Source of the DNA: an uncultured Oscillospiraceae bacterium
GTDB taxonomy: Bacteria; Bacillota; Clostridia; Peptostreptococcales; Anaerovoracaceae
Length of the DNA: 25,565 nt
NCBI GenBank assembly: GCA_964427575.1
Contig: CAYRVM010000002.1
Location: 1 to 25,565, forward strand
Direction: 5' to 3'
Part shown: one piece after another, positions 6,658 through 23,413 of the stretch
Position numbering within the stretch: position 1 is the first letter of the stretch
Layout: each line of letters starts with the position of its first letter
Position numbers and translations under genes: made by a program
The notes under the pieces: model-generated
What the model was told of the DNA's origin: nothing
Database searches by the model: none
What the model saw: only the letters and a program-made list of their open reading frames with translations

Positions 6658-6709
6658 ATAGCAGCGTTTGATACTTCAAATTTCAATACCGACAAGAAAG
6701 GCACAAATA

Positions 6710-7714
6710 ATGATAATTTTCCAATGGTTAAATGATCAGGTTCTAAAAATGGAATGGCTATCCAATCTTTTTCAATATCTGGTTGAAAAAGTATTCGGTT
6801 TAGATATAACAGGACAGCTAGGCGGAAGTCTTCACTTTTTTCTATATGATGTAGTTAAGATATTTATATTGTTATGTGTGCTTATTTTTATTATTTCATA
6901 CATACAAAGTTTTTTTTTTTTTTTTAGGACAAGGAAAATATTAGGTCGATTTAAAGGTGTTTCTGCGAATATCCTTGGAGCATTGTTAGGAACTATAACA
7001 CCCTTTTGCTCATGTTCATCTATCCCATTATTTATAGGATTTACAAGTGCGGGTCTCCCCATCGGAGTAACTTTCTCCTTCTTAATCTCTTCACCTCTAG
7101 TTGACTTAGCATCCGTAATTCTATTAGCAAGTATCTTCAATTGGAAAATAGCGATTGCATATGTAATTGTCGGTCTTATTTTGGCAGTAATTGGTGGAAC
7201 AATAATTAGCAAATCAAAGCTTGAAAAGTATGTTGAACCATTCGTCTTTACCAATAAGATTATGGAAGCGGATCAAGATGCATTAACAAGGCTAGATAGA
7301 ATGGATTTTGCAAAGAATCAAGTTTTCGATATTGTAAGGAAAGTTTGGTTGTATATATTAATTGGCGTTGGTATTGGAGCCTTGATACATAATTGGATTC
7401 CTGAGAGCGTCATTTCAGCTGTACTTGGCCAGGATAAATGGTACTCCGTATTATTGGCAACTTTCGTTGGCATACCAATGTATGCAGATATATTTGGGAC
7501 TCTCCCAATCGCTGAAGCTTTGGTTTCAAAGGGAGTTGGATTGGGAACCGCTCTTTCATTCATGATGGCAGTAACTGCTCTATCCCTTCCATCGTTGATT
7601 ATGTTAAAGAAAGTAGTTAAAACAAAGCTTTTAGTAATATTCACAGGTGTTGTAACCATAGGAATTCTGATAATAGGATATTCCTTTAATGCCTTTGGAT
7701 ACTTGCTAATGTAA
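6710..7714 (+). CDS. ArsP-like / DUF318 permease
   Basis: TPFCSCSSIP, FLISSPLVD, GIPMYA..GTLPI, ALSLPSL motifs. ATG 6710 has RBS AAGAAAGG and is preferred to TTG 6668. Confidence 0.85.
   Translation: MIIFQWLNDQVLKMEWLSNLFQYLVEKVFGLDITGQLGGSLHFFLYDVVKIFILLCVLIFIISYIQSFFFFFRTRKILGRFKGVSANILGALLGTITPFCSCSSIPLFIGFTSAGLPIGVTFSFLISSPLVDLASVILLASIFNWKIAIAYVIVGLILAVIGGTIISKSKLEKYVEPFVFTNKIMEADQDALTRLDRMDFAKNQVFDIVRKVWLYILIGVGIGALIHNWIPESVISAVLGQDKWYSVLLATFVGIPMYADIFGTLPIAEALVSKGVGLGTALSFMMAVTALSLPSLIMLKKVVKTKLLVIFTGVVTIGILIIGYSFNAFGYLLM
6910..6925 (+). repeat. T16 homopolymer inside permease CDS
   Basis: 16 consecutive T, in frame, encoding S-F-F-F-F-F. Confidence 0.95.
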
Positions 7715-7734
7715 TTTATTTAAATATTAAGAAA

Positions 7735-8088
7735 GTGGGTGGTACTATTTTAAACATTATAAATGTATTTAAGGCCTTATCAGACGAAACAAGATTACGG
7801 ATTTTAAATCTACTATTTGAACAGGAACTTTGCGTCTGCGATATTATGGAAACTCTTCAAATAAGTCAGACCAAAGCTTCAAGACACTTGGGTTATATGA
7901 AAAATGCGGGCTTGGTAAATGATAAAAAGCAGGCTCAGTGGGTTTATTATAGAATGGCCGATTTAACGAATGGTGATTTTATTGAAAGCTTAGTTAAGAA
8001 CAATCTTAGAAAAGAAGAAATATATATTAGCGATCTCAAGCACCTTTCAGACTGGCTCATAGTTAAGGGTAAGGATTGTATTAAATAA
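7735..8088 (+). CDS. arsR: ArsR/SmtB-family repressor
   Basis: FKALSDETRLRIL, ELCVCD metalloid-binding box, SRHL HTH; start codon uncertain. Confidence 0.92.
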   Translation: MGGTILNIINVFKALSDETRLRILNLLFEQELCVCDIMETLQISQTKASRHLGYMKNAGLVNDKKQAQWVYYRMADLTNGDFIESLVKNNLRKEEIYISDLKHLSDWLIVKGKDCIK

Positions 8089-8136
8089 TTTCAATAAATA
8101 GTTTAATAAATAATTTTATATATAGTGGAGGTAAAC

Positions 8137-9219
8137 ATGAGTATCGAAAAACATGCAAGGCTATCATTTTTAGATAGGTATTTGACCCTTTGGATATTTT
8201 TGGCTATGGGAATTGGCGTAGGAACAGGTTTCTTATTCCCTTCCGTAGCAACTTCTCTCGAAGGCATGAGTACAGGGACAACATCTTGGCCAATAGCGAT
8301 CGGCCTAATTATTATGATGTATCCACCGCTAGCTAAGGTTAAATACGAAGAAATTGGCAAAGTTACAAAAAACAAGAAAATCTTTGGATTTTCGTTAATC
8401 CAAAACTGGATTATCGGGCCTATCTTGATGTTTGTCCTAGCAATAATCTTTCTTCCCGACATGGCAGATTATGCTGTAGGATTAATTATCATTGGGCTTG
8501 CTCGTTGCATAGCTATGGTAATCGTTTGGAACACCCTTGCTAAGGGTGACAATGAATATTGCGCAGCCCTTGTTGCTGTAAATTCAATATTCCAAATCTT
8601 ATTCTTCTCTCTTTATATCTATATTTTCGTAACATTTCTTCCAAATCTACTAGGTCTTTCCTTTGGCGGAATGGCTGTAGATATTAGTATTTGGAAAGTT
8701 GCTCAGAGCGTATTAATTTATCTAGGAATACCTTTCTTCGGTGGCATAATAACAAGATTTGCCTTGATTAATTCTAAGGGTAAAGAATGGTATGAAACTA
8801 AATTTATACCTAAAATTTCACCTTTTGCATTAATTGCATTGCTTTATACTATAGTAATAATGTTTACTCTCAAGGGAGAATATATAGTTGAGCTACCATT
8901 TGATGTAATAAGAATTGCAATTCCATTGCTTTTTTATTTTGCAATTATGTTCTTCTTCAGCTTCTTCATGTCCATGAGGGGCGGCTTCTCATACGACCAG
9001 ACTGTAACCTTGTCCTTCACCGCCGCAAGCAACAACTTTGAGCTTGCGATTGCTGTAGCCGTAGCTGTATTTGGTATCGGTAGTGGGCAGGCTTTTGCAG
9101 CTGTAATCGGACCTCTTGTTGAGGTGCCAGTTATGATTGGTCTGGTTAATGTTGCATTATTGTTTAAAAGTAAGTATTACAGCATTGATGGCTTGCCATT
9201 AAAAAAACAAATATCATGA
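8137..9219 (+). CDS. acr3: ACR3-family arsenite efflux transporter
   Basis: [50 protein letters not shown]; RBS GGAGGT before ATG 8137. Confidence 0.95.
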
Positions 9220-9271
9220 ATTTTGTAGAATTCGATCGAGTTCAAACAATGTAAGAATTAAGGAGAAGATT

Positions 9272-9685
9272 ATGAAAAAATATATAACCGCCTTTGTATG
9301 CACAGGCAATTCGTGTAGAAGTCAGATGGCTGAAGGTTGGGCTAAACATTTGGGGAGTCACATATTAGAAAGCTATAGTGCAGGTACCCATCCAGCAAGT
9401 GAAATTAATCCATTAGCCATTGCTGTTATGAATGAAGTTGGAGTCGATATTTCATCTCAAGTTCCAAAGCTTCTCGACGAAATTCCTTACGAAATCGATA
9501 TATTGATAACTATGGGTTGCGGAGTGGAATGTCCTTATCTACCCAATGATTATCGCGCGGACTGGGGTCTCGAAGATCCAGTGGGCAGACCTATTGAGGA
9601 ATTTAGGAAGACTAGAGATATAATCCGAGAAAAAATGCTAGAATTGATTGAAATGGTTGAAAAAGAAGGAATTACTATAAAATAA
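9272..9685 (+). CDS. arsC: Arsenate reductase, LMW-PTPase (thioredoxin-coupled) family
   Basis: CTGNSCRSQMAEG P-loop, TMGCG..CP, DWGLEDP. Confidence 0.92.
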   Translation: MKKYITAFVCTGNSCRSQMAEGWAKHLGSHILESYSAGTHPASEINPLAIAVMNEVGVDISSQVPKLLDEIPYEIDILITMGCGVECPYLPNDYRADWGLEDPVGRPIEEFRKTRDIIREKMLELIEMVEKEGITIK

Positions 9686-9979: not shown

Positions 9980-10720
9980 TTACATTTTGTCCTTGTCTTT
10001 TATGATGAAATTGTTTTTCTTGTAATCTATTATACCTTCAGCCTTCATCTTGCTAAGTTCTCTAGAAAGTGCGCTTCTATCAACAGATAGCCATTCAGCG
10101 AGCTCTTCCCTATTGAAAGGAATTTCAAAAGAGAGAGCTTTCTTATTTTTTGCGATATCCATAAGATATGAAGATATCTTTTCTCTCATCCCCTTCAATA
10201 ATAAATAATCTACTTTTTTATTGAACATTACATTTTTTACAGCAAGAATACTCATCATGTTTTGAATAAGTTTGCTATGAAAAGAGCAAGCCGAACTGCA
10301 GGTTGTTGTTATTCTTTTATAATCAAGAAAGCAAAGCCAACCTTCACTGCTTCCGACCACGGAGACAGGGCTTTCTTCAACTTCGGCACAAACTAGAGCT
10401 TCAGCAAACATGTCCAGCGGACCGAGCGTTGTGACAATTGAACGCCTTCCAAAAGTATCTTCTTTAATAATATCTGCAGATCCACTAAAAAGAATTCCTA
10501 TATGCCTGACTGGATCACCTTCCATAAGAAGAAACTGGCCCTTCTTGAACTGCCCAAAAGAAGCCCTCAAGCATGTAAGCAAGCCTTCTATTTCATCCTG
10601 CTTAATTCCTTGAAAAAGCTTTGAGCCAGACAATATTTTTGCCGCCTTCTGCATTTTTTCGAAGTCGGATTTTGGTAGATCGCCAAACGATGTAGCTTTA
10701 TTTCTATCAGTATTACTCAT
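9980..10720 (-). CDS. hcpR: Crp/Fnr-family regulator, probably HcpR
   Basis: cNMP-binding-like domain (FAEAL), CSSACSFH, and HTH REELAEWLSVDRSALSRELSKM; divergent from hcp. Confidence 0.8.
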   Translation of the reverse strand: MSNTDRNKATSFGDLPKSDFEKMQKAAKILSGSKLFQGIKQDEIEGLLTCLRASFGQFKKGQFLLMEGDPVRHIGILFSGSADIIKEDTFGRRSIVTTLGPLDMFAEALVCAEVEESPVSVVGSSEGWLCFLDYKRITTTCSSACSFHSKLIQNMMSILAVKNVMFNKKVDYLLLKGMREKISSYLMDIAKNKKALSFEIPFNREELAEWLSVDRSALSRELSKMKAEGIIDYKKNNFIIKDKDKM

Positions 10721-10833: not shown

Positions 10834-10916
10834 TCAGTTATAAAAGCAATACGAGTGCTTGAATATAAATATTAATTAATGAATTTTATTTTGTAAATGT
10901 GAAGGGAGAAATTAAA

Positions 10917-12446
10917 ATGGGAAATATGTTTTGTTTCCAATGCGAGCAAACTGCTGGCGGAAAAGGTTGTTCAAACGTAGGGGTCTGTGGCAAACAGCCA
11001 ACAACTGCTAATCTTCAGGATGAATTGACGGGGAAATTAATTGACCTTGCAAAGAAACCAAATCTTACTCAGGAAGACTATACAACAATCATTGAAGGCT
11101 TATTTACAGAGGTTACAAATGTTAACTTTGACGATGAATCACTTAATGTAATGCTTGATAAGTTAGGACCTAAGACTGCAAAGACATTAGATATGAATAC
11201 AATTTGGGGCGCAAATGAAGATATTCGTTCACTTCAGTCTTTGATACTATTTGGACTTAGGGGAATGGCTGCTTATGCCCATCACGCCTTAGTTTTAGGA
11301 TATATTGATGATGAAGTTAATAAGGAATTTGCCAAAGGACTAAAAGCACTATCTGAAGATTTATCTGCTGATGAACTTCTAGGATTAGTTCTTGAGCTAG
11401 GAAATGTAAACTTAAAGTGCATGGCGCTATTAGACAAAGCGAATACAGAAACTTATGGCACTCCAGTTCCAACAAAGGTTTCTACTAATATAGATAAAGG
11501 ACCTTTCATCGTAGTTTCAGGACATGATCTTTTGGATCTATACCACCTTCTAAAGCAAACCGAAGGTAAAGGAGTAAACATATACACACACGGTGAAATG
11601 CTTCCATGCCATGCTTATCCAAAGCTAAAAGCATTCAAGCACCTAAAAGGAAATTTTGGAACAGCTTGGCAAAATCAGCAGAAAGAATTTATCGACCTTC
11701 CTGGCGCAGTTTTATTTACAACAAACTGCATAATGCCAGTTAAAGATAACTATGCCGATAGAATCTTTACAACTGCTATGGTTCAATATCCTGGTATGAC
11801 TCATATTGACGACAATAAGGACTTTACTCCTGTTATAAAAAAAGCTCTTGAGCTTGGCGGATATAAGGAAGAAAGAAAGATGACTGGTATCAACGGTGGC
11901 GACACAATGATTACTGGATTTGGACACGGAACTGTTCTTGCCGCTGCAGGAACTATAGTTGAAGCTGTTAAAGCTGGAGCAATTTCTAGATTCTTCTTGG
12001 TTGGCGGTTGCGATGGAGCAAAACCAGGTAGAAACTATTACACCGAATTTGTTCAAAAGGCACCTTCCGATTCAATCATTCTTACTCTTGCTTGTGGTAA
12101 GTTCAGATTTAATGATTTAGACCTAGGAGAAATCGGTGGATTCCCAAGAATCATGGATATGGGTCAATGCAACGATTCTTATAGCGCAATAAAAGTTGCT
12201 GTAGCCCTTGCGGAAGCCTTTGAATGTGGAGTTAACGATCTGCCACTTTCAATAATCCTTTCTTGGTATGAACAAAAGGCAGTAATAGTTTTGTTGACCT
12301 TACTTGCTCTTGGAATTAAAAACATTTATCTGGGACCAACATTGCCAGCCTTTGTTTCCCCAAATGTTTTAAAAATCTTAGTAGATAACTACAATATTTC
12401 GCCAATATCTACTCCTGACGAAGATTTAAAGAAAATCTTAGGTTAA
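10917..12446 (+). CDS. hcp: Hybrid cluster protein (hydroxylamine reductase)
   Basis: MFCFQCEQT...GCSNVGVCGK cubane motif, THGEMLPCH, TTNC, GGCDG, ACGKFRFN, GQCNDS, SWYEQKA; ATG 10917 after GGGAG. Confidence 0.97.
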   Translation: MGNMFCFQCEQTAGGKGCSNVGVCGKQPTTANLQDELTGKLIDLAKKPNLTQEDYTTIIEGLFTEVTNVNFDDESLNVMLDKLGPKTAKTLDMNTIWGANEDIRSLQSLILFGLRGMAAYAHHALVLGYIDDEVNKEFAKGLKALSEDLSADELLGLVLELGNVNLKCMALLDKANTETYGTPVPTKVSTNIDKGPFIVVSGHDLLDLYHLLKQTEGKGVNIYTHGEMLPCHAYPKLKAFKHLKGNFGTAWQNQQKEFIDLPGAVLFTTNCIMPVKDNYADRIFTTAMVQYPGMTHIDDNKDFTPVIKKALELGGYKEERKMTGINGGDTMITGFGHGTVLAAAGTIVEAVKAGAISRFFLVGGCDGAKPGRNYYTEFVQKAPSDSIILTLACGKFRFNDLDLGEIGGFPRIMDMGQCNDSYSAIKVAVALAEAFECGVNDLPLSIILSWYEQKAVIVLLTLLALGIKNIYLGPTLPAFVSPNVLKILVDNYNISPISTPDEDLKKILG

Positions 12447-12684: not shown

Positions 12685-13983
<1,299 letters not shown>

Positions 13984-14079: not shown

Positions 14080-15240
14080 GTGGGTAAAATAGAGAATATG
14101 GAAAAGAAAGAAATATATTTCGACAATGCGGCTACAACACCGCTCAGAAGGGAGGTTATCTTAGAAATGCAACCATTTATGGAAGCTTTCTACGGTAACC
14201 CTTCTTCGGTTTATGCCATCGGGAGAGAGAGTAAAAGGGCCCTCAACCAAGCAAGAGAGAGAGTTGCAAATGCTATTAATGCTCGACCGGAAGAAATAGT
14301 ATTCACAAGTGGCGGTACTGAAGCAGATAATTTAGCTGTTTTGGGAGTTGCAAGGGCTAATCGTAAAAAGGGCAATCACATAATAACTTCTAAAATCGAA
14401 CACAAAGCAGTTATAAGTGCTTGCCACGCCTTGGAAGAAGAAGGATTCAGAGTTACATATTTAAACGTTGATAAATTTGGGATTGTCGATTTAGCTCAAT
14501 TAGAATCAGAGATATGTAATGAAACTATCTTAATTTCAGTTATGCATTCAAATAATGAAATTGGCACCCTCCAGCCTATGGAAAAGATTTCTGAGTTAGC
14601 TGTTTCAAATGGAGTTTATCTTCATACTGATGCAGTCCAATCAATTGGGAATATTTCTGTTGATGTAAACTCTCCAAAAGTTGACCTACTTAGCCTATCC
14701 TCTCATAAGATATATGGTCCAAAAGGTGTTGGTGCCTTATATGTACGAAAAGGTACTCCTATTAAGCCTTTAGTATTTGGTGGCTATCAAGAACGCAGCT
14801 TGCGACCTGGCACTGAGAATGTGCTTGGTATCGTAGGGTTTGGAAAAGCTGCTGAGCTAGCCTCTAAAGAATTATTGGAAAACCAAAAGTGTATTTCTTC
14901 CCTTCGAGATTATGCCTTAAAGAAGTTGGAATTCGCATTCCCATATGGGAATTTAAATGGGCATCCAGATAAGCGGCTCCCTGGCAATTTAAATTTTTCA
15001 TTTACAATTGTCGCCGGTGAAACAGTGATTATGATGCTTGATACTATTGGCATTTGCGCATCTACTGGCTCGGCCTGCGCCTCTGGCTCAACTGATGCCT
15101 CACATGTTCTACTTGCATTAGGTTTATCACAATTTGAGGCTCAAAGCGCAGTGAGATTTAGTTTCGGAAAGTTCAACACTAAAGAAGAAATTGATATTAT
15201 GATAAAGGAATTAAAGAAGGCTATAGCTCGATTGGAATAG
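14080..15240 (+). CDS. iscS: Cysteine desulfurase, group I (IscS/NifS-like); alternative start ATG 14098
   Basis: YFDNAATT, FTSGGTEADN, HTDAVQ, SSHKIYGPKG (PLP Lys), STGSACASG (catalytic Cys). Confidence 0.92.
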   Translation: MGKIENMEKKEIYFDNAATTPLRREVILEMQPFMEAFYGNPSSVYAIGRESKRALNQARERVANAINARPEEIVFTSGGTEADNLAVLGVARANRKKGNHIITSKIEHKAVISACHALEEEGFRVTYLNVDKFGIVDLAQLESEICNETILISVMHSNNEIGTLQPMEKISELAVSNGVYLHTDAVQSIGNISVDVNSPKVDLLSLSSHKIYGPKGVGALYVRKGTPIKPLVFGGYQERSLRPGTENVLGIVGFGKAAELASKELLENQKCISSLRDYALKKLEFAFPYGNLNGHPDKRLPGNLNFSFTIVAGETVIMMLDTIGICASTGSACASGSTDASHVLLALGLSQFEAQSAVRFSFGKFNTKEEIDIMIKELKKAIARLE

Positions 15241-15295
15241 AGTAAGTAAAAAGATCTAGTTTAAAAGATATAGAAGTGCATAAAGCAGAACGGTA

Positions 15296-16648
15296 TTGAA
15301 TGAAATGAAAGAAAATAAATTGAGGAAAACAGTTATGGTCGGAATGAGTGGCGGAGTGGATAGCTCTGTTGCTGCTTCTATTCTCCTTGATCAAGGTTAT
15401 GAAGTTACTGGAGTTACGCTAAAGCTTCTCGAGAGCGAGGATGCTCCATGTTGCGCTGATCCGAGCGAAGGCTGCTGCACTGATCCGACTCCTGGGTGTT
15501 GCTCTGATCCGGCTCCTGGGTGCTGCTCTGATCCGACTCCTGTGTGCTGCGCTGATCCAAGTCCGGGTTGTTGTGCAGATCAAAGTCCGGGATGCTGTTC
15601 AGATGCGGACGCGGGATCTTGTTGGGGAGATTCTGGCACAGGAGAAGTTGCAGGTTCAGTAGCCGGCGCATACTCAAGTGCAAGCAGCACAAAGCAAAGC
15701 AAGACATGCTGTTCCCTTGACGATGTAGAAGATGCTAGGGCTACGGCTTTCAAACTTGATATTCCATTTTATGTTTTGAACATGAAGGCAGAATTTAAGG
15801 AAAAGGTTATAGATTATTTTATTGATTCTTATTTGGATGGGGAGACCCCTAATCCTTGCATTTATTGTAATAAATTTCTAAAGTTTGAAGGTTTGCTTAA
15901 GAAAGCCTATGCTCTTGATATCGACCATATTGCTACCGGCCATTATGCTAGACGCGAGTTTGATGAAGCAACTGGAAAGTATTTATTAAAAAAAGCCCTT
16001 GATCCATCGAAGGACCAGAGCTATGCTCTTTACATGTTAACTCAAGATCAACTCAGCCATCTCTTATTGCCATTAGGCAATCTAAGCAAGACCGAAATAA
16101 GAGCCATGGCAGAGCAAAAGGAACTTAAGGTTTTTAATAAACCTGACAGCCAAGATATTTGTTTCGTCAATGAAGGTGAATATCCCGACTATATAAAGAG
16201 ACATTCTTCTAAAAAGATCCTGCCTGGCAATTTCGTTGACAAGGAAGGAAATATTCTGGGTAGGCACAAAGGAATTATTTACTATACCGTTGGGCAGAGA
16301 AAAGGCCTAGGAATTGCTTGGAAAGAACCTCTTTATGTTTTAGCAAAGGATGTCGAAAAAAACACAATATTGCTCGGAAATAAAGATACTATAAAAAAAT
16401 CATCCCTCACCGCTAGGGAAATGAATTATATCTCCATAAGCGAACCTACGGAGATATTCAAAGCACTTGCTAAAGTAAGATATTCATCTAAGGAAACCGC
16501 GGTTACCGTAACTCCCCTTGCAGATGGTCGGGCGCTAGTCGAATTTCTAGAGCCTCAAGCTTTCATCGCCCCTGGCCAAGCTGTCGTGCTTTACGATGGC
16601 GATGTGGTTATCGGTGGTGGGATTATTGAAAAAGAACCTCTGAAATAG
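15296..16648 (+). CDS. mnmA: tRNA 2-thiouridine(34) synthase with Cys-rich repeat insertion; alternative start ATG 15305
   Basis: MSGGVDSS PP-loop, TPNPCIYCN (CxxC), IATGHYA, KDQSY, KPDSQDICF, YTVGQRKGLG, APGQAVV. Confidence 0.95.
   Translation: MNEMKENKLRKTVMVGMSGGVDSSVAASILLDQGYEVTGVTLKLLESEDAPCCADPSEGCCTDPTPGCCSDPAPGCCSDPTPVCCADPSPGCCADQSPGCCSDADAGSCWGDSGTGEVAGSVAGAYSSASSTKQSKTCCSLDDVEDARATAFKLDIPFYVLNMKAEFKEKVIDYFIDSYLDGETPNPCIYCNKFLKFEGLLKKAYALDIDHIATGHYARREFDEATGKYLLKKALDPSKDQSYALYMLTQDQLSHLLLPLGNLSKTEIRAMAEQKELKVFNKPDSQDICFVNEGEYPDYIKRHSSKKILPGNFVDKEGNILGRHKGIIYYTVGQRKGLGIAWKEPLYVLAKDVEKNTILLGNKDTIKKSSLTAREMNYISISEPTEIFKALAKVRYSSKETAVTVTPLADGRALVEFLEPQAFIAPGQAVVLYDGDVVIGGGIIEKEPLK
15449..15616 (+). 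repeat. Seven tandem 24-bp in-frame repeats encoding CCxD[P/Q/A]xx[G/V]
   Basis: CCADPSEG CCTDPTPG CCSDPAPG CCSDPTPV CCADPSPG CCADQSPG CCSDADAG, then a degenerate SCWGDSGT. Confidence 0.97.
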
Positions 16649-18029
16649 ATTCTGAATAAGTTGGATGTGGCCTGATTATTTTAGCCAAATCCTTCCTTGT
16701 TAGACCCAAAGAAATAGCCAAAACAAATTCCGAAATCATATCGGTAGCCCTATTGCATATAATGTGGGCGCCGATTATTTTTTCGCTCTCCGTTTCCAAG
16801 ACGACCTTTATAAATCCTCTCTCCTGTTTTTCGATGACTGATTTCCCATTTCCTTGCATTTGAACTTTTAACTCATTGGCTAATATCCCTTGTTTTTCTG
16901 CCTGTTCCAAAGTCATTCCTACCGATGCAATTTCAGGACTCGTATATACACATGACGGAACAACGTTCAAATCAATTGTTGGCATTTTCCCTGACAATTC
17001 TATAGCTAAATTTGTTCCTTGCGCGGAAGCAAAATGCGCCAGCTGGATCTTAGAAGAAACATCACCAATAGCATATATCCCGTTAATGCTAGTTTCAAAT
17101 TTCTGATTAACTAATATTCGGTTTCCATCCATTTCGACTTTAAGGTTTTGCGAAAACAAATTCTGGTAATTGGGTTTTCTACCAACTGCAATCAAAACCC
17201 CATCTGAAAGCACAATTTCTTCCTTATCTTTTTCAACAGACTTCAATTTGCATTGAAGGATTTCTCCATCCTCTTCAATGCTATTAATGCTATATTTAGT
17301 CATTATCTTGATGCCGCGTTTTTTAATTATGGCGGTCATATTTTGCGATATTTCCTTGTCCATTTCTGGGAGCAAGCTGTCCATGGCTTCGACGATTGTA
17401 ACTTCGGAGCCAAGAGAATTATATAACATAGCAAATTCGATTCCAATAACCCCTCCCCCGATTACAACAAGTCTTTCAAAGGCCTTTTCTTTTCTTTCGA
17501 GGAGCGTTGTGCTATTGAAAACTTTAGGGTTATCCGCACCTGGAATATCTAGTTCAATTGGTTTACTACCTGTTGCTATAATTATTTTATCGGCAGTAAT
17601 CTGAAGTTCTTCACCCTCGGCTGTTGAATCCTATGCTTCAATTAATTTAACTGAGATTTTATTTTCTTCAATGATTGAGGCTTCACCAATTATTAGTTCA
17701 ACTTTATGTTTCTTTAGTAAAAATAATATACCGCTTTTTAATCTTTCAATGACTTCGTTTTTTCGTGCCTGCAGTTTAAGCATATCAATCGAGATTGATT
17801 CTGTATCAAAGCCTGTTATTCCGATTTTTTCGACATCCTTCATCTCCCTAAAAATATTTGCCGTATGAATCAAAGTCTTGGTTGGAATGCACCCTACATT
17901 TAGGCAGGTTCCTCCAACTTCATTTTTCTCAATCAAACATACCGAAAGGCCCAGCTCGCCTGCTTTGATTGCCGCCGTATAGCATGCAGGGCCTGCTCCG
18001 ATTACAGCTAAATCATAATGTTTTTCCAT
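16623..18029 (-). pseudogene. lpdA: Dihydrolipoamide dehydrogenase interrupted by an in-frame TAG at 17631-17633 (pseudogene, readthrough or sequence error)
   Basis: ORF 17631-18029 (GGTCLNVGCIPTK) continues in frame past the TAG as DSTAEGEELQITADKIIIATGSKP...GGGVIGIEFA into ORF 16623-17429 (AIGDV, LAH, PEIASVG, HPTYSE). Confidence 0.8.
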
Positions 18030-18031
18030 AG

Positions 18032-19033
18032 CTACACCTCAAATGAATTATTTATAAAATTTATGGAATCTTCTAGGATTATTTTTTGTTCCGCCGGAAG
18101 ATTATTATTTATTGATTTAAGGCTAGTTTCTAATGTTGATTTTGAAAATTTTACACCTCGTAAAACATTGCTCATTTCATCAAATAGGTCGTATTCGAGT
18201 GAGTCAGAAAATATCTGAACCTCATCAACTTTATTTCCTTTAATTTTGAATCTAAGATTTATTGCACCCCAAGGGAATCTCTCTGAAATTTCCTTCTGGC
18301 AGTCAATGATTTTACCAAGCTTCCAATCCTTACTTTTATATTTTCGGGTCAGTTCCAAGATATTCTCTATGTCCAAATTCTCTTCAATAATTTCTTTTGA
18401 CTCTATACCATACTCTTTTGAATATGCCGCCACAAGAATATTTTTGAGCTTGTCTATGCTTAATTCTTGATTGAATTCCTTTAAATTTGCTACTCTAGAC
18501 TGAACAGATTTAACTCCCTTGCTTTCTAATTTGTCCTTGGATACGTTGAGATACTTACCCATATCCCCAAGACTCACATCGACTAGTAATGTCCCATGGT
18601 GGAAGCATTTCCCACCCCTTTCATAAAAGGCATTACCCGAGAATTTTTTACCATCAATGGTCAGATCATTTCTCCCAGTTTTTTCGCCATTAATACCAAT
18701 TTCACTAAGTGCTCGGAGGATAACATTTAATTGCTTATCTACGTTGTAGTTTTTCTTAGATGCAATAAATGTAAAGTTTAAATTGCCTCCATCATGGTAC
18801 ACAGCTCCTCCACCGGATAAACGTCTTGCTAGAAAACCTTCTCCCATTTCCAGCTCTTCGATCCTACATTCAAGAAAGGCATTTTGATTCTTGCCGACAA
18901 CAACAGTATTCCTGTTTTGCCATAGGAATAAAATGCATTGATCTTCATCAACACTATTAAGAAGGTTTTCCTCCAAAGCTAGGTTGTGGTATGGATTGAG
19001 GGAGGTGCTTATTATATGGTTAAGTTTAAGCAT
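18032..19033 (-). CDS. lplA: Lipoate-protein ligase
   Basis: VVVGKNQN, RRLSGGGAVYHDGGNLNF, KKFSGNAF, HHGTLL, GVKSVQSRV. Confidence 0.93.
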   Translation of the reverse strand: MLKLNHIISTSLNPYHNLALEENLLNSVDEDQCILFLWQNRNTVVVGKNQNAFLECRIEELEMGEGFLARRLSGGGAVYHDGGNLNFTFIASKKNYNVDKQLNVILRALSEIGINGEKTGRNDLTIDGKKFSGNAFYERGGKCFHHGTLLVDVSLGDMGKYLNVSKDKLESKGVKSVQSRVANLKEFNQELSIDKLKNILVAAYSKEYGIESKEIIEENLDIENILELTRKYKSKDWKLGKIIDCQKEISERFPWGAINLRFKIKGNKVDEVQIFSDSLEYDLFDEMSNVLRGVKFSKSTLETSLKSINNNLPAEQKIILEDSINFINNSFEV

Positions 19034-19066
19034 AGTAAAACCGCAACCTTTCTAAATTAATTTAAC

Positions 19067-20518
19067 TTATCTATTTTCGAATTTTAATCTAGGGTTCCTT
19101 GCTGCTCCGACTTCATCGAGTCTGCCGACTGGAGTCGTCTTTGGGGCATTTTTTAGTTTGTCGGGCTCGCTAATTATTTCATCATGAATTGCCTTAAATA
19201 TCTCAACCACTTTGTCCAAAGTTTCTTTTGATTCAGTTTCCGTTGGCTCTATCATCAAAGCTTCCTTGACTATCATCGGAAAATACATGGTGGGAGGATA
19301 GATCCCATAATCCAACAATCTTTTTGCAAAATCAAGTGCCGAAATCCCGTAATCCTTCTTAATTTCTTCGAGAGTAATTACAAATTCATGCAGGGTTTTT
19401 TCATCGTTGGCTATTGGGTAGATTTCTGATAGGCGACTTCTTAAATAGGTTGCATTAAGAACTGCCATTTCAGAGGCTTCTTTAATTCCTTCGTTTCCAA
19501 GGGAAACAATATATGTCAAAGCTCTTAAAACAACTAGGAAATTGCCGTGGAATGCTTTTAGTTTTCCAATGCTCTGGTTTGAAGCCGCGGGTTTTTCGAC
19601 CGGGCTATAGTAGTCATTAGCCGCGGCGAAGTAATTGGAGGCGGGCATGTATTGTGCGAGGAAGGCTTTGCAGCCGACAGGCCCGCTGCCTGGCCCGCCG
19701 CCGCCGTGGGGGGTGGAGAAGGTCTTGTGCAGGTTTAGATGTATTACGTCAAAGCCCATGTCTCCTGGCCTCACTTGTCCCATGATCGCGTTCAGGTTTG
19801 CTCCGTCGTAGTAGACGAGGCCGCCGGATTGATGGATTATTTTTGTGATTTCTAAAATATCCTTTTCGAAAATCCCCAAGGTGTTGGGATTGGTTAGCAT
19901 CAAGCCCGCTGTGTCTGGGCCCGCAAGCTCTTTCAGTTTTTCCAAGTCGACGCAGCCATCAGTTCTTGACGGTACATTGACTACTTGGAAGCCAGCCATT
20001 GTAGCGCTTGCGGGATTGGTCCCGTGCGCTGAGTCTGGAATGAGAATTTTCGTTCTTTCAAAATTACCTTTTACTAGATGGTGTTTTCTTATTAGTAAAA
20101 GTCCAGTAAATTCTCCCTGTGCTCCCGCTGATGGCTGAAAAGTCATCCTGTCCATTCCAGTTATTTCGCAAAGGTATTTTTCTGCAAGTTCAAATACTTC
20201 TATGCAACCCTGCGCTGTATCTACAGGTTGGAGGGGGTGAATTCCCGTGAATCCCTTTAGAGATGCAACCTCTTCATTTATTCTAGGATTATATTTCATA
20301 GTGCAAGAACCTAATGGGTAAAATCCACTATTGACTCCATATGTTCTCTTAACCAGTTCTGTATAATGACGAAGCAAATCTGTCTCTGCAATTTCTGGCA
20401 GTTCTAATGAAGATGCTCTTCTCATTTTCGATGGTATTTGATTTGTACCTTTATACTCAAAAGTTGGAACGTGATCAGTTCCTCTTCCTTTTATACTTTT
20501 TTCAAAAATCAAGTTCAT
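19067..20518 (-). CDS. gcvPB: Glycine dehydrogenase (decarboxylating) subunit 2
   Basis: FYPLGSCTMKYNP, SAHGTNPASA, YDGANLNA, HLNLHKTFSTPHGGGGPGSGP, EPTETESKE. Confidence 0.96.
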   Translation of the reverse strand: MNLIFEKSIKGRGTDHVPTFEYKGTNQIPSKMRRASSLELPEIAETDLLRHYTELVKRTYGVNSGFYPLGSCTMKYNPRINEEVASLKGFTGIHPLQPVDTAQGCIEVFELAEKYLCEITGMDRMTFQPSAGAQGEFTGLLLIRKHHLVKGNFERTKILIPDSAHGTNPASATMAGFQVVNVPSRTDGCVDLEKLKELAGPDTAGLMLTNPNTLGIFEKDILEITKIIHQSGGLVYYDGANLNAIMGQVRPGDMGFDVIHLNLHKTFSTPHGGGGPGSGPVGCKAFLAQYMPASNYFAAANDYYSPVEKPAASNQSIGKLKAFHGNFLVVLRALTYIVSLGNEGIKEASEMAVLNATYLRSRLSEIYPIANDEKTLHEFVITLEEIKKDYGISALDFAKRLLDYGIYPPTMYFPMIVKEALMIEPTETESKETLDKVVEIFKAIHDEIISEPDKLKNAPKTTPVGRLDEVGAARNPRLKFENR

Positions 20519-21843
20519 GCTGTCACCTCCTTCAAGATTTTAACCATTCGGTCAATATCGTCTTTGGAGTTCATTTCCGTAGCGCACCAAAGGATGCATG
20601 CTTCCCCATCAATTGAAATAGGTAAGCCCCCAAGAATCCCATTAAGCTCAAGTTCATCTAGGACTTTGCCATAGTCTTTCGGCGCTGTTGTGGCGAATTC
20701 GTGGAAGAAGAGCTTATTAAATTTTAGCTTATATCCTTTTATCATAGAGAGCTCATCAGCTAAGTATAAGGCTTTCGCGATGGAATTTTCTGCGGCATTT
20801 ACAATTCCTTTAGGCCCCATCGCCCCGAGATATGCTCCCACAGTAAGTGCACAAAGCGCTTGATTTGAGCAAATACTGCTGCTCGCTTTTTCTCTTCTTA
20901 TATGCTGTTCTCTTGCCTGCATCGTCAGAACGTAAGCTCGCTCACCTTTTACATCTACTGTCTCGCCAACGATTCTTCCTGGGAGCCTTCTCACCATATC
21001 CTGCTTGGCAGACATAAAACCAATGTATGGCCCACCAAAAGACAATGGTATTCCCATAGGTTGGCCTTCACCTACCGCAATGTCTGCCCCACACTCAGCG
21101 GGGGTTTTCAAAACAGACCCAGCGATCGGATTTATACTCATAATAAATCTTGCCGAAAAACTGTGGGCTAAGTCCGCAATTTTTTCTGCATCTTCTATAA
21201 TTCCATAAAAATTCGGTTGTTGAATCAAAACTGATCCCACAGTTTCGTCCATCAATGATTCGAGGGCCACTGCATCAGTTTCGCCATCCTTTGAATTAAC
21301 CAAAACAAGCTCAATACCTAAAGGTTTACAATAGGTCTCCATAACCCTGACCCAATCCATGTTCACAGTCTCCGAAACTAGCGCCTTCTTCTTGCCCTTT
21401 TCCACACACATCATAATAGCCTCAGCGCAAGCAGTGGCACCATCGTACACGGAGGCGTTCGCCACATCCAGCCCAGTCAATTGACAAATCATAGTCTGAA
21501 ACTCAAAAATTGACTGGAGCAAACCCTGGCTCACTTCCGCCTGATACGGCGTATACGCGGTCACAAATTCTTCTTTGCTGCTGATAAATTTAACCACCGA
21601 TGGTATGTAATGATTGTATGCTCCCGCTCCTCTAAATATGCTCCCAAAAACTTTATTCTTACCAGCGATATTTTCCATATATGCTAACGTGTCTAGTTGG
21701 CTTTGTCCCTTTGGGATATTCAAATCTCTATTAAGCATGACTTCTTTTGGAATATGTGAATACAGTTCCCCCAAGCTATTCAAGCCAATAACTTTTAGCA
21801 TCTCCTCTTTATCAAAACTCGTGCTAGGCACATAACTGCTCAT
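20515..21843 (-). CDS. gcvPA: Glycine dehydrogenase (decarboxylating) subunit 1
   Basis: GAGAYNHYIP, TAYTPYQAEVSQG, NASVYDGATA, FGGPYIG, REQHIRREKA..ICSNQAL. Confidence 0.96.
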   Translation of the reverse strand: MSSYVPSTSFDKEEMLKVIGLNSLGELYSHIPKEVMLNRDLNIPKGQSQLDTLAYMENIAGKNKVFGSIFRGAGAYNHYIPSVVKFISSKEEFVTAYTPYQAEVSQGLLQSIFEFQTMICQLTGLDVANASVYDGATACAEAIMMCVEKGKKKALVSETVNMDWVRVMETYCKPLGIELVLVNSKDGETDAVALESLMDETVGSVLIQQPNFYGIIEDAEKIADLAHSFSARFIMSINPIAGSVLKTPAECGADIAVGEGQPMGIPLSFGGPYIGFMSAKQDMVRRLPGRIVGETVDVKGERAYVLTMQAREQHIRREKASSSICSNQALCALTVGAYLGAMGPKGIVNAAENSIAKALYLADELSMIKGYKLKFNKLFFHEFATTAPKDYGKVLDELELNGILGGLPISIDGEACILWCATEMNSKDDIDRMVKILKEVTA

Positions 21844-21845
21844 AA

Positions 21846-22229
21846 TTATGCCTCCTTAGCGATCAATTCTTCATATTCTTCCTTCGTAAGAAAATCCTCT
21901 TTTGCTGTCACTCCGCTTACTCTGACAAGCCATGCATCGTATGGCTGAGAGTTAAGAAGCGCTGGATTATCTAAAAGCAATTCATTGATTTCAGATACTT
22001 CTCCAGAAACTGGCGAGTAAATGTCAGATACCGCTTTTACGGACTCAACATCGGAAAAAACTTCCGCTATTATAACTTCATCTCCAACTTTTGGAAGATT
22101 TACAAAGACAATGTCCCCTAATTCATGTTGGGCAAAATCCGTGATCCCAATTTCCACATTATCTTTATCGATTGTTTTTATCCATTCATGGGTACCTGTG
22201 TACATTAATTCATCTAATACTATGCTCAT
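21846..22229 (-). CDS. gcvH: Glycine cleavage system H protein
   Basis: THEW, GITDFAQHELGDIVFV, VESVKAVSDIYSP (lipoyl Lys); ATG 22229 after GGAGG. Confidence 0.96.
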   Translation of the reverse strand: MSIVLDELMYTGTHEWIKTIDKDNVEIGITDFAQHELGDIVFVNLPKVGDEVIIAEVFSDVESVKAVSDIYSPVSGEVSEINELLLDNPALLNSQPYDAWLVRVSGVTAKEDFLTKEEYEELIAKEA

Positions 22230-22247
22230 TTTTATTTCCTCCAATTT

Positions 22248-23393
22248 CTATATTTTTATTTTTGTTCTTTTATAAAAAGGTATTTCTACAACTTCAACGG
22301 ATAATCTATTTCCTCTCACATCAGCTTCCAGAACATTACCTAAATTTGAAAACCTCTTCTCAACCATAGCCATGCTTATAGCATATCCAAGATAAGGTGC
22401 CATGTTTCCCGATGTGGTTTCACCGACTACCATATTCTCAAAATAAAGCTTAGATTCTTCCCTGACAATTCCCCTAGAAATGAGTTTTAAACCAACTCTA
22501 ACCTTCTCAACCACGCCTCTTTCAAGGATCCCATCTAGCCCAATAAAATAGCTTTTATTCATATTAACAAAGTGCGATAGTCCAGCTTCAAGTGGTGAAA
22601 TGTTATCATTCATTTCATGGCCGTAAAGTGGCATCCCTGCTTCCATTCTTAAAGTGTCTCTAGCTCCCAACCCGCAAGGAATAAGACCGAATTTTGCCCC
22701 AGTTTCAAGAAGCAAATTCCAAAGTTTAACTCCATCTAGGTTGCTACAGTAAAATTCAAAACCATCTTCACCCGTGTATCCAGTCCTTGACACTATGCAT
22801 TCGACATCTGAAACTACTGCCTTTTCAATAAAAGTATAATTCTTCTTTGGGATATACTTTTTATCCGCAAGCTCCAAGAGAATCTTTTCCGACTCCGGCC
22901 CAGACATCGATATTTGTACAAGGCTATCAGAAATATTTTCTAACTCGGCATCGCCAAAAAGATTTTCAGTAATCCAGTCGAAGTCTTTTTGCTTATTTGA
23001 GGCATTCACCACCAGCATATAGCTGATTTCCGAAAGCTTATAGACTATTAAGTCGTCGATTATTCCTCCGCTTTCGTTACACATCGGGCTATAGCGGGCT
23101 TGCCCAATTGATATATCTTGAAAATCATTTGTCAGGATATACTGAACATTGGCTAGGGCGTCCTCACCTGTAATAACCAACTCGCCCATGTGTGAAACGT
23201 CAAATAGGCCAGCGCGCGCCCTCACCGCATTGTGCTCGGCGATAACCCCCGTCTGATATTGAACAGGCAATAAATACCTAGCAAACTCAACCATTCTCCC
23301 ACCCAGCTTTACATGTTTATCATATAAAGGTGTTTTCAACGCCTCGCTCTCGTTTTCACTTTTTCCTAAGTCTCTTTCATCTTCGTTTTTCAT
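22248..23393 (-). CDS. gcvT: Glycine cleavage system aminomethyltransferase T
   Basis: [48 protein letters not shown]; ATG 23393 after GGGGAGGT. Confidence 0.96.
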
Positions 23394-23413
23394 ATTTACC
23401 TCCCCCAATGTAC

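Follow-up and report, generated by a model that had tools for sequence, protein, structure and literature searches.

The window analysed here is a stretch of 25,565 nucleotides (nt) from an uncultured Oscillospiraceae bacterium (GTDB lineage Bacteria; Bacillota; Clostridia; Peptostreptococcales; Anaerovoracaceae), corresponding to positions 1 to 25,565 of the forward strand of contig CAYRVM010000002.1 (NCBI GenBank assembly GCA_964427575.1). It carries mnmA, the gene for tRNA 2-thiouridine(34) synthase, and within this gene an in-frame, genus-specific tandem repeat that adds a disordered, acidic poly-thiol loop to the organism's only MnmA. The open reading frame occupies 15,296–16,648 (+) and encodes 450 amino acids from an in-frame TTG at 15,296, or 447 from the ATG at 15,305; the start was set at this ATG, as used by the orthologues, which places the gene at 15,305–16,648 (+). 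As had been noted in an earlier reading made from the letters alone (the sequence-only reading), the protein is longer than usual, most homologues having 353–375 amino acids.

By every sequence and fold criterion tried, the protein is an MnmA of the C-type. All three MnmA domains are present (HUP catalytic domain, PRC barrel, and C-terminal barrel; Pfam PF03054, PF20259, and PF20258), the NCBIfam equivalog models NF001138 and TIGR00420 score 431 and 356 bits against cut-offs of 284 and 237, respectively, and the AlphaFold2 model is matched by Foldseek to the solved MnmA structures 2DET, 2DEU (both E. coli MnmA-tRNA structures), and 2HMA (E values of 1e-36 to 1e-37, target template modeling [TM] scores of 0.88–0.89). 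C-type enzymes are defined by the signature CC-CxxC-C in place of C-DxxC-C (Shigi et al. 2020, PMC7025502). In that of Thermus thermophilus, a [4Fe-4S] cluster is held by the CxxC and the lone Cys and is required for activity, while the CC, here called the native CC, is conserved and its role is an open question (PMC7025502). The catalytic motifs of the window protein are intact, as the sequence-only reading had stated, and are invariant in alignment A1: the PP-loop SGGVDS, which is the ATP pyrophosphatase motif (residues 18–23; 15,347–15,364, +), the CxxC (C188 and C191; 15,857–15,868, +), and C289 in DSQDICF (16,160–16,162, +). The native CC (C138 and C139; 15,707–15,712, +) is equally invariant. 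By homology to C105/C108 and C200 of the T. thermophilus enzyme (PMC7025502), C188 and C191 are predicted cluster ligands and C289 the predicted third one, and the full CC-CxxC-C signature places the protein in the predicted [4Fe-4S]-dependent class. Because a single MnmA was found in the metagenome-assembled genome (MAG; 1.8 Mb, 331 contigs, 92% complete), this one is presumably functional in tRNA thiolation.

The insertion comprises 86 residues, 15 of them Cys (residues 52–137 of the 450-residue frame; 15,449–15,706), and lies between strand β2 and the native CC, in the naturally variable β2-α2 loop; the sequence-only reading had likewise placed it in a variable loop that often precedes a CC. 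LKLLESEDAP precedes it, and CCSLDDVEDAR, which begins with the native CC, follows. It opens with seven units of 24 nt (15,449–15,616, +) encoding octapeptides of the form CCxD[P/Q/A]xx[G/V], namely CCADPSEG, CCTDPTPG, CCSDPAPG, CCSDPTPV, CCADPSPG, CCADQSPG, and CCSDADAG. These are followed by SCWGDSGT (15,617–15,640, +) and by a Ser/Gly/Ala-rich linker that ends in KQSKT (15,641–15,706, +; GEVAGSVAGAYSSASSTKQSKT). Translation and the 24-nt period reported by Tandem Repeats Finder over 15,473–15,604 confirm the Cys-Cys octapeptides, the linker, and the Cys count that had first been read. The element SCWGDSGT, however, which had been taken for a degenerate eighth copy, proved on comparison of the insertions to be the counterpart of a separate distal element, conserved as SCCGDS in the orthologues, in which a Cys has here become Trp.

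The G+C content of the insertion is 56%, against 39% in the rest of mnmA and 36% in the genome, and its Cys content is 18%, against 1.2% in the genome's long open reading frames. It has a net charge of about −10 and, in a count over 84 residues, holds 15 Cys and seven CC pairs together with one Trp and one Tyr. The description metallothionein-like thus holds for its composition (high Cys, CC motifs, few aromatics), but not for its family, as no metallothionein family was matched. AlphaFold2 models the loop (residues 49–135) as disordered, with predicted local distance difference test (pLDDT) values of 25–37.

Logan contigs of four sequencing runs were compared with positions 15,250–15,950. One contig of 452 nt, from a different study (run X5), covers 15,404–15,855 without a gap and is identical to the window inside the array; its eight differences from the window all lie downstream of the array, at 15,706–15,760. 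This independent crossing supports the repeat and rules out an assembly artefact. Contig pieces from two further studies agree with the array, but break within or next to it, as is common at repeats. The stretch or parts of it are present in lake-water and freshwater metagenomes of 11 studies, and metatranscriptome runs of one study (P8) contain 27–34% of its sampled words. An intein, an intron, or a second gene within the repeat is ruled out by the continuous frame and by the amino-acid-level selection on the Cys codons described below. The small open reading frames at 15,414–15,707 (−) and 15,441–15,662 (+) are by-products of the repeat.

The insertion is restricted to a single genus of uncultured freshwater bacteria. 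Searching 5.8 billion protein clusters yielded seven relatives with Cys-Cys insertions (396–436 amino acids; 75–84% overall identity and up to 98% outside the loop), which hold 3–5 Cys-Cys pairs each and all belong to this genus. A relative at 67% identity (384 amino acids) has a shorter insertion without CC units, and those at 64% or less have none. The insertion-bearing orthologues are eight in number, with sequences drawn from JGI, ENA, Logan, and NCBI, and the GTDB species representative "MAG: Eubacteriales bacterium ELA049" is among the carriers. Among 31 genomes of the same order, the insertion was limited to the window genome and one congener and was absent from the other 29; the distance from SGG to NPCxxC was 138–175 residues in the two carriers and 80–98 in the other 27 genomes with a match. 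The DNA pattern for CCx[D/E]PxxGCCx[D/E]P gave 16 matches in 185,579 species genomes, with a believable frame only in ELA049, the sister species; the other 15 fell in short or implausible frames, mostly in high-GC genomes.

The insertion belongs to no known family, as far as its sequence was compared. HMMER with the insertion alone (residues 46–137) against 1.84 billion representatives gave 30 matches, all of them unrelated low-complexity repeats with no shared family and many in doubtful frames. One of these, P0126, is another repeat-built poly-(Cys-Cys) protein, an unrelated one of 303 amino acids with about 15 tandem heptapeptide or octapeptide units of the CCD[E/D][K/V]K[G/A]G type and a C-terminal hydrophobic tail. 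A word-indexed search with residues 44–140 found nothing beyond the same clade, an ESM Atlas search reached scores of at most 0.77 and TM below 0.3, and a Pfam scan of residues 46–137 with E values up to 10 returned only PF07846 (E = 7.7, 7.6 bits). No paper on an MnmA with a Cys-rich or similar insertion was found in the literature either, so that, across both kinds of search, the statement that no such MnmA had been described stands. Within the genome, a six-frame scan revealed no second CC-repeat protein, and blastn of 15,440–15,712 against the whole MAG gave only the region itself and chance 13–14-mers. The insertion DNA forms no significant hairpin (minimum free energy −103.1, against a shuffled mean of −98.5 with a standard deviation of 5.1; z = −0.9). 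An RPE/REP-like dispersed palindromic element is ruled out, since the repeat DNA is unique to mnmA and not hairpin-forming; unlike such elements, it is a local tandem 24-nt codon repeat with selection on Cys at the amino acid level.

The eight orthologues share a common plan: unit 1 (CCA[D/E]Pxx[G/S]), at least one copy of unit 2 (CCx[D/E]PxPG), unit 3 (CC[S/A]D[Q/K]Dxx), SCCGDS, the Ser/Gly/Ala linker, K-x-[S/T]-K-T, and the native CC. In three of the loci (L088, L010, and L006) unit 3 is replaced by the single-Cys sequences CTGEDSEL or CFPDQDDR. On this plan, unit 1 of the window corresponds to unit 1 of the orthologues, its units 2–6 to an expanded unit 2, and its unit 7 to unit 3. Outside the loop, identity with the nearest relative of the window, L005, reaches 98.3% for the protein and 96.3% for the DNA, but L005 has a different array, in which unit 3 and the distal element are duplicated together. 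Because two near-identical genes carry different arrays, copy number must change on a strain-to-species time scale. The sister lineage (L008/L009) has an insertion of 25 residues with a distal element of the SCxG-DSS type (ESCEGFDSS) and a linker, but no CC units. There may thus have been an older, nearly Cys-free insertion before the CC units arose, but the sister lineage may equally well have lost them. The sequence-only reading had suggested that the native CC was amplified into the arm. Such a simple amplification cannot be shown and is not supported, because the sister lineage has the insertion and distal element without CC units; the growth seen in the window is rather that of one internal unit, CCxDPxPG, from one copy to five.

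Although copy number turns over fast, the cysteines of the loop are clearly under purifying selection. Far from being lost freely among homologues, Cys is encoded by 47 of the 48 codons of the three CC pairs shared by the eight orthologues, with TGT and TGC freely exchanged. On a tree of mnmA without the insertion, Fitch parsimony counted eight codon changes and one residue change in the six Cys columns, but 36 codon changes and 16 residue changes in the twelve spacer columns. The latter amount to 1.33 residue changes per codon, about four times the rate in the rest of mnmA (0.33). If only some one in five neutral single-base changes to a TGY codon is synonymous, the probability of at least seven of eight changes being synonymous is about 1e-4, a rough figure because repeats can exchange sequence. 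It is the swapping of TGT and TGC without loss of Cys, next to spacer residues that change fast, that identifies the thiols as selected. In unit 2, Pro and Gly likewise persist through synonymous change; the PxPG turns are selected to a lesser degree than the thiols, and the other spacer positions are nearly free. The test covers the three shared units, and the four extra units of the window are recent and lie outside it.

Directly upstream of mnmA is a gene for a class V cysteine desulfurase of the NifS/IscS type (14,080–15,240, +; PF00266), which scores 510 bits with the NifS model, passes the cut-off of the IscS subfamily model, and is likely a dedicated sulfur donor to MnmA. It is preceded by a metY-like gene for a pyridoxal phosphate enzyme of Cys/Met metabolism (12,697–13,983, +; PF01053), which by synteny is the conserved first gene of the row metY-desulfurase-mnmA. 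The desulfurase gene is directly upstream of mnmA in all seven insertion-bearing loci with visible upstream DNA, with metY before it where visible, and in none of these seven does an iscU lie between them. Elsewhere, the order desulfurase-iscU-mnmA occurs in at least 35 of 77 related Clostridia loci. In the sister lineage, metY is followed by mnmA without an intervening desulfurase gene, and hcp and its Crp/Fnr regulator have the opposite orientation to that in the window. A complex prediction for MnmA residues 4–300 with the upstream desulfurase gave a score of 0.02, which speaks neither for nor against binding.

Further upstream is an arsenic resistance row (6,668–9,685) with an ArsP-type permease, ArsR, Acr3 of the SBF family, and an ArsC of the low-molecular-weight phosphatase type, followed by a Crp/Fnr regulator (9,980–10,720, −) and hcp (10,899–12,446). 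The sequence-only reading was correct in placing ars and hcp loci near mnmA, but a functional link of the arm to them amounts to mere synteny, which is held in the relatives and also in the sister lineage without CC units. On the other side, mnmA converges with lpdA (dihydrolipoyl dehydrogenase, 468 codons; 16,626–18,029, −), and the 3′ ends of the two genes overlap by 26 nt (16,623–16,648), as they do in L005, L087, L088, and L089. The lpdA gene has its full length and is collinear with the intact 468-amino-acid orthologue of L005, but contains a single in-frame TAG at 17,631–17,633, after ...KISVKLIEA. This stop may be a nonsense mutation of recent date, an error of sequencing or assembly, or a site of read-through. 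It lies in a row with gcvT, gcvH, gcvPA, and gcvPB (glycine cleavage) and a gene for a lipoate-protein ligase (18,032–23,408, −), syntenic in L005.

Judging from the selection on its cysteines, the loop probably binds metal or sulfur beside the iron-sulfur site of the enzyme. The many units, their expansion, and the Asp after each Cys pair point to a function of capacity, in which several ions or atoms are bound; a single catalytic or switching Cys would not need such units. The explanation that we favor, tentatively and at somewhat less than even confidence, is a metallothionein-like arm that would bind Fe/Zn or Fe-S and support the assembly, repair, or buffering of the catalytic cluster. In this proposal, the loop would be a multi-thiolate arm tethered beside the catalytic pocket, with several metal ions bound to it, Fe(II)/Zn(II) or labile Fe-S units being the likeliest. 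For the three-Cys-ligated [4Fe-4S] cluster, from which sulfur is delivered to U34, it would be a nearby reservoir or an arm for assembly or repair, and its partner would be the NifS-like desulfurase of the adjacent upstream gene, with no IscU at the locus. The nucleotide pocket of PP-loop enzymes is lined by the end of β2 and the start of α2, so that, if this general rule of the fold holds here, the arm could reach the active site. Modular metallothioneins gain capacity through tandem duplication, and more units would likewise give this arm a higher capacity. The composition (18% Cys, charge −10) fits the binding of metal cations by Asp and thiolates, and the constant desulfurase gene without iscU, where most other Clostridia have desulfurase-iscU-mnmA, fits the proposal as well. 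The more specific version, in which the arm would take sulfur from the desulfurase together with bound iron and would build, repair, or recharge the [4Fe-4S] cluster of MnmA in cis without IscU, we consider unlikely.

Several observations weigh against such a metal- or cluster-binding arm. In the HMMER, Pfam, and ESM Atlas searches, the insertion resembled neither a metallothionein family nor a family of Fe-S scaffolds, and the native CC of T. thermophilus MnmA is dispensable in vitro for both cluster binding and activity (PMC7025502). The CC units and the adjacent desulfurase gene co-occur as a single phylogenetic event, and their association therefore carries no statistical weight. About eight Clostridia loci have desulfurase-mnmA with neither IscU nor an insertion. 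Moreover, a separate IscS-IscU pair is encoded on contig C101 (G000), so that a built-in scaffold is not required. The lack of a scaffold gene is therefore real locally, but the organism is not without a scaffold, and the idea of the arm as a replacement for a missing one is rejected at the genome level. The related idea that the arm owes its existence to a missing scaffold loses weight both through this pair and through the Clostridia that have desulfurase-mnmA without IscU or insertion. SufBD was not found in the 92%-complete MAG. In the C101 pair (L090, 1–1,639), the frame of iscS is broken near codons 120–135 by an X/N run and a TAA, probably an assembly gap, and mnmA does not come after its iscU as it does in most Clostridia.

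A possible but doubtful alternative is that the loop is an arm for the relay or reductive release of sulfane sulfur, in which the CC pairs would accept persulfide from the desulfurase, a neighboring thiol would resolve it, and sulfide would be released beside the cluster. Such an arm would stand in for the chemistry that Cys199/Cys102 carry out in D-type MnmA, the equivalent residues of the C-type being cluster ligands, and extra units would store more S(0). The desulfurase gene upstream of mnmA in all seven loci and the selection on the loop cysteines are both consistent with it, and the strict pairing of the cysteines would supply the resolving thiol. Direct transfer of sulfur from cysteine desulfurases to MnmA is known in T. 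thermophilus, and resolution of the persulfide by a second Cys has been proposed for E. coli MnmA (PMC7025502). However, the acidic neighbors in CCxD should raise the pKa of the thiols and disfavor nucleophilic acceptance of persulfide, the known carriers TusA, SufE, and IscU use single Cys residues in folded sites, and multiple copies bring no obvious benefit.

Less credible is a tolerated low-complexity expansion, produced by replication slippage of the 24-nt unit in a permissive surface loop and without any thiol-dependent function. The loop is naturally variable, spanning 80–98 residues from SGG to NPCxxC in relatives, it is modelled as disordered, and near-identical strains differ in copy number. 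In the window, units 2–4 are near-identical in DNA and have almost all codons in common, those of the founder, and CCG accounts for six of the 10 Pro codons of the insertion but for none of the 15 elsewhere in mnmA. What makes this explanation improbable is that Cys codons are kept through synonymous turnover in eight orthologues while the adjacent spacers change about four times faster than the remaining protein, and a neutral array would not be expected to keep 7–15 reactive Cys in a disordered loop in the cytoplasm. In addition, the repeat DNA is not dispersed in the genome and has no significant hairpin.

We regard as decidedly improbable a sacrificial shield, that is, an arm that would keep thiophilic toxicants, for instance As(III), Hg(II), Cd(II), Cu(I), or NO, away from the exposed cluster by binding them first and would have no normal catalytic role. 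Vicinal Cys pairs are classic ligands of As(III) and Hg(II), for example in ArsD and in the C-terminal CC of MerA; the ars operon and hcp lie 3–9 kb upstream, syntenic in relatives; and the capacity of a shield would scale with copy number. Yet a stoichiometric sponge on one low-abundance enzyme protects little, the sister lineage without CC units has the same ars/hcp synteny, and the records, from lake or freshwater metagenomes only, do not tie the habitat to metal stress. Finally, a redox- or metal-gated lid, an anionic arm that would cover or repel the tRNA-binding or active-site surface, or give a fourth ligand to the open iron of the cluster, and that would be released on reduction or metal binding to tune tRNA thiolation to the redox or sulfur state, is very improbable despite the net charge of −10 beside an RNA-binding catalytic domain and the 1.7-fold higher activity of the native-CC mutant C56A of T. 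thermophilus MnmA (PMC7025502), which hints at an inhibitory contact, since one or two Cys would suffice for it, the repeated and expanding units would be unexplained, and the loop is modelled as disordered with no docked state in the prediction.

The window protein resembles the C-type MnmA of T. thermophilus (PMC7025502) in its PP-loop, native CC, CxxC, third Cys, three-domain architecture, and fold, and in having a cysteine desulfurase as the likely direct sulfur donor, but it adds the 86-residue, disordered, acidic poly-(Cys-Cys) loop, known from one freshwater Clostridia genus only. With the YrvO-MnmA pair of Bacillus subtilis (PMC7025502, PMC11784392) it shares a class V desulfurase gene as the immediate upstream neighbor of mnmA, without an intervening scaffold gene; B. 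subtilis MnmA, however, is of the D-type (DxxC-C, with a persulfide mechanism) and has no Cys-rich loop, whereas the window enzyme is of the C-type and the housekeeping IscS-IscU of its genome sits at a separate locus. The likeness to metallothioneins is one of composition only: both have high Cys, CC motifs, low complexity, and no stable fold predicted without metal, and in both capacity could scale with repeat number, but the module of the window is a loop inside an enzyme rather than a small free-standing protein, is strongly acidic, and has a regular CCxDPxxG period. In the C-terminal Cys-Cys tail of MerA and in Cys12-Cys13 of ArsD, flexible adjacent cysteines bind a thiophilic ion and hand it over to an active site, either of their own protein or of a partner. 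The resemblance to these is by analogy alone, in the flexible segment with adjacent Cys; they have one to three pairs at defined positions, while the window genus has 3–7 tandem pairs and no sequence similarity to them.

The reach of the finding is limited, as a single uncultured genus from fresh water carries the feature. Within it, the region beside the native CC, a motif that C-type enzymes conserve although it is dispensable in vitro, has expanded into an array under selection, with as many as seven additional Cys-Cys pairs. This makes the enzyme a natural gain-of-feature variant for asking what vicinal thiols do in cluster-dependent tRNA thiolation, the candidate roles being cluster assembly or repair, persulfide reduction, and protection. 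The array is, in addition, a clean case of a tandem codon repeat in an essential enzyme in which one residue type is selected while copy number drifts. If the loop should prove to be an arm that supplies Fe-S in cis, it would show what the conserved CC motif, here multiplied, does in C-type MnmA, and the protein would be the first known enzyme with its own repeat-expandable arm for the supply of Fe-S or sulfide.

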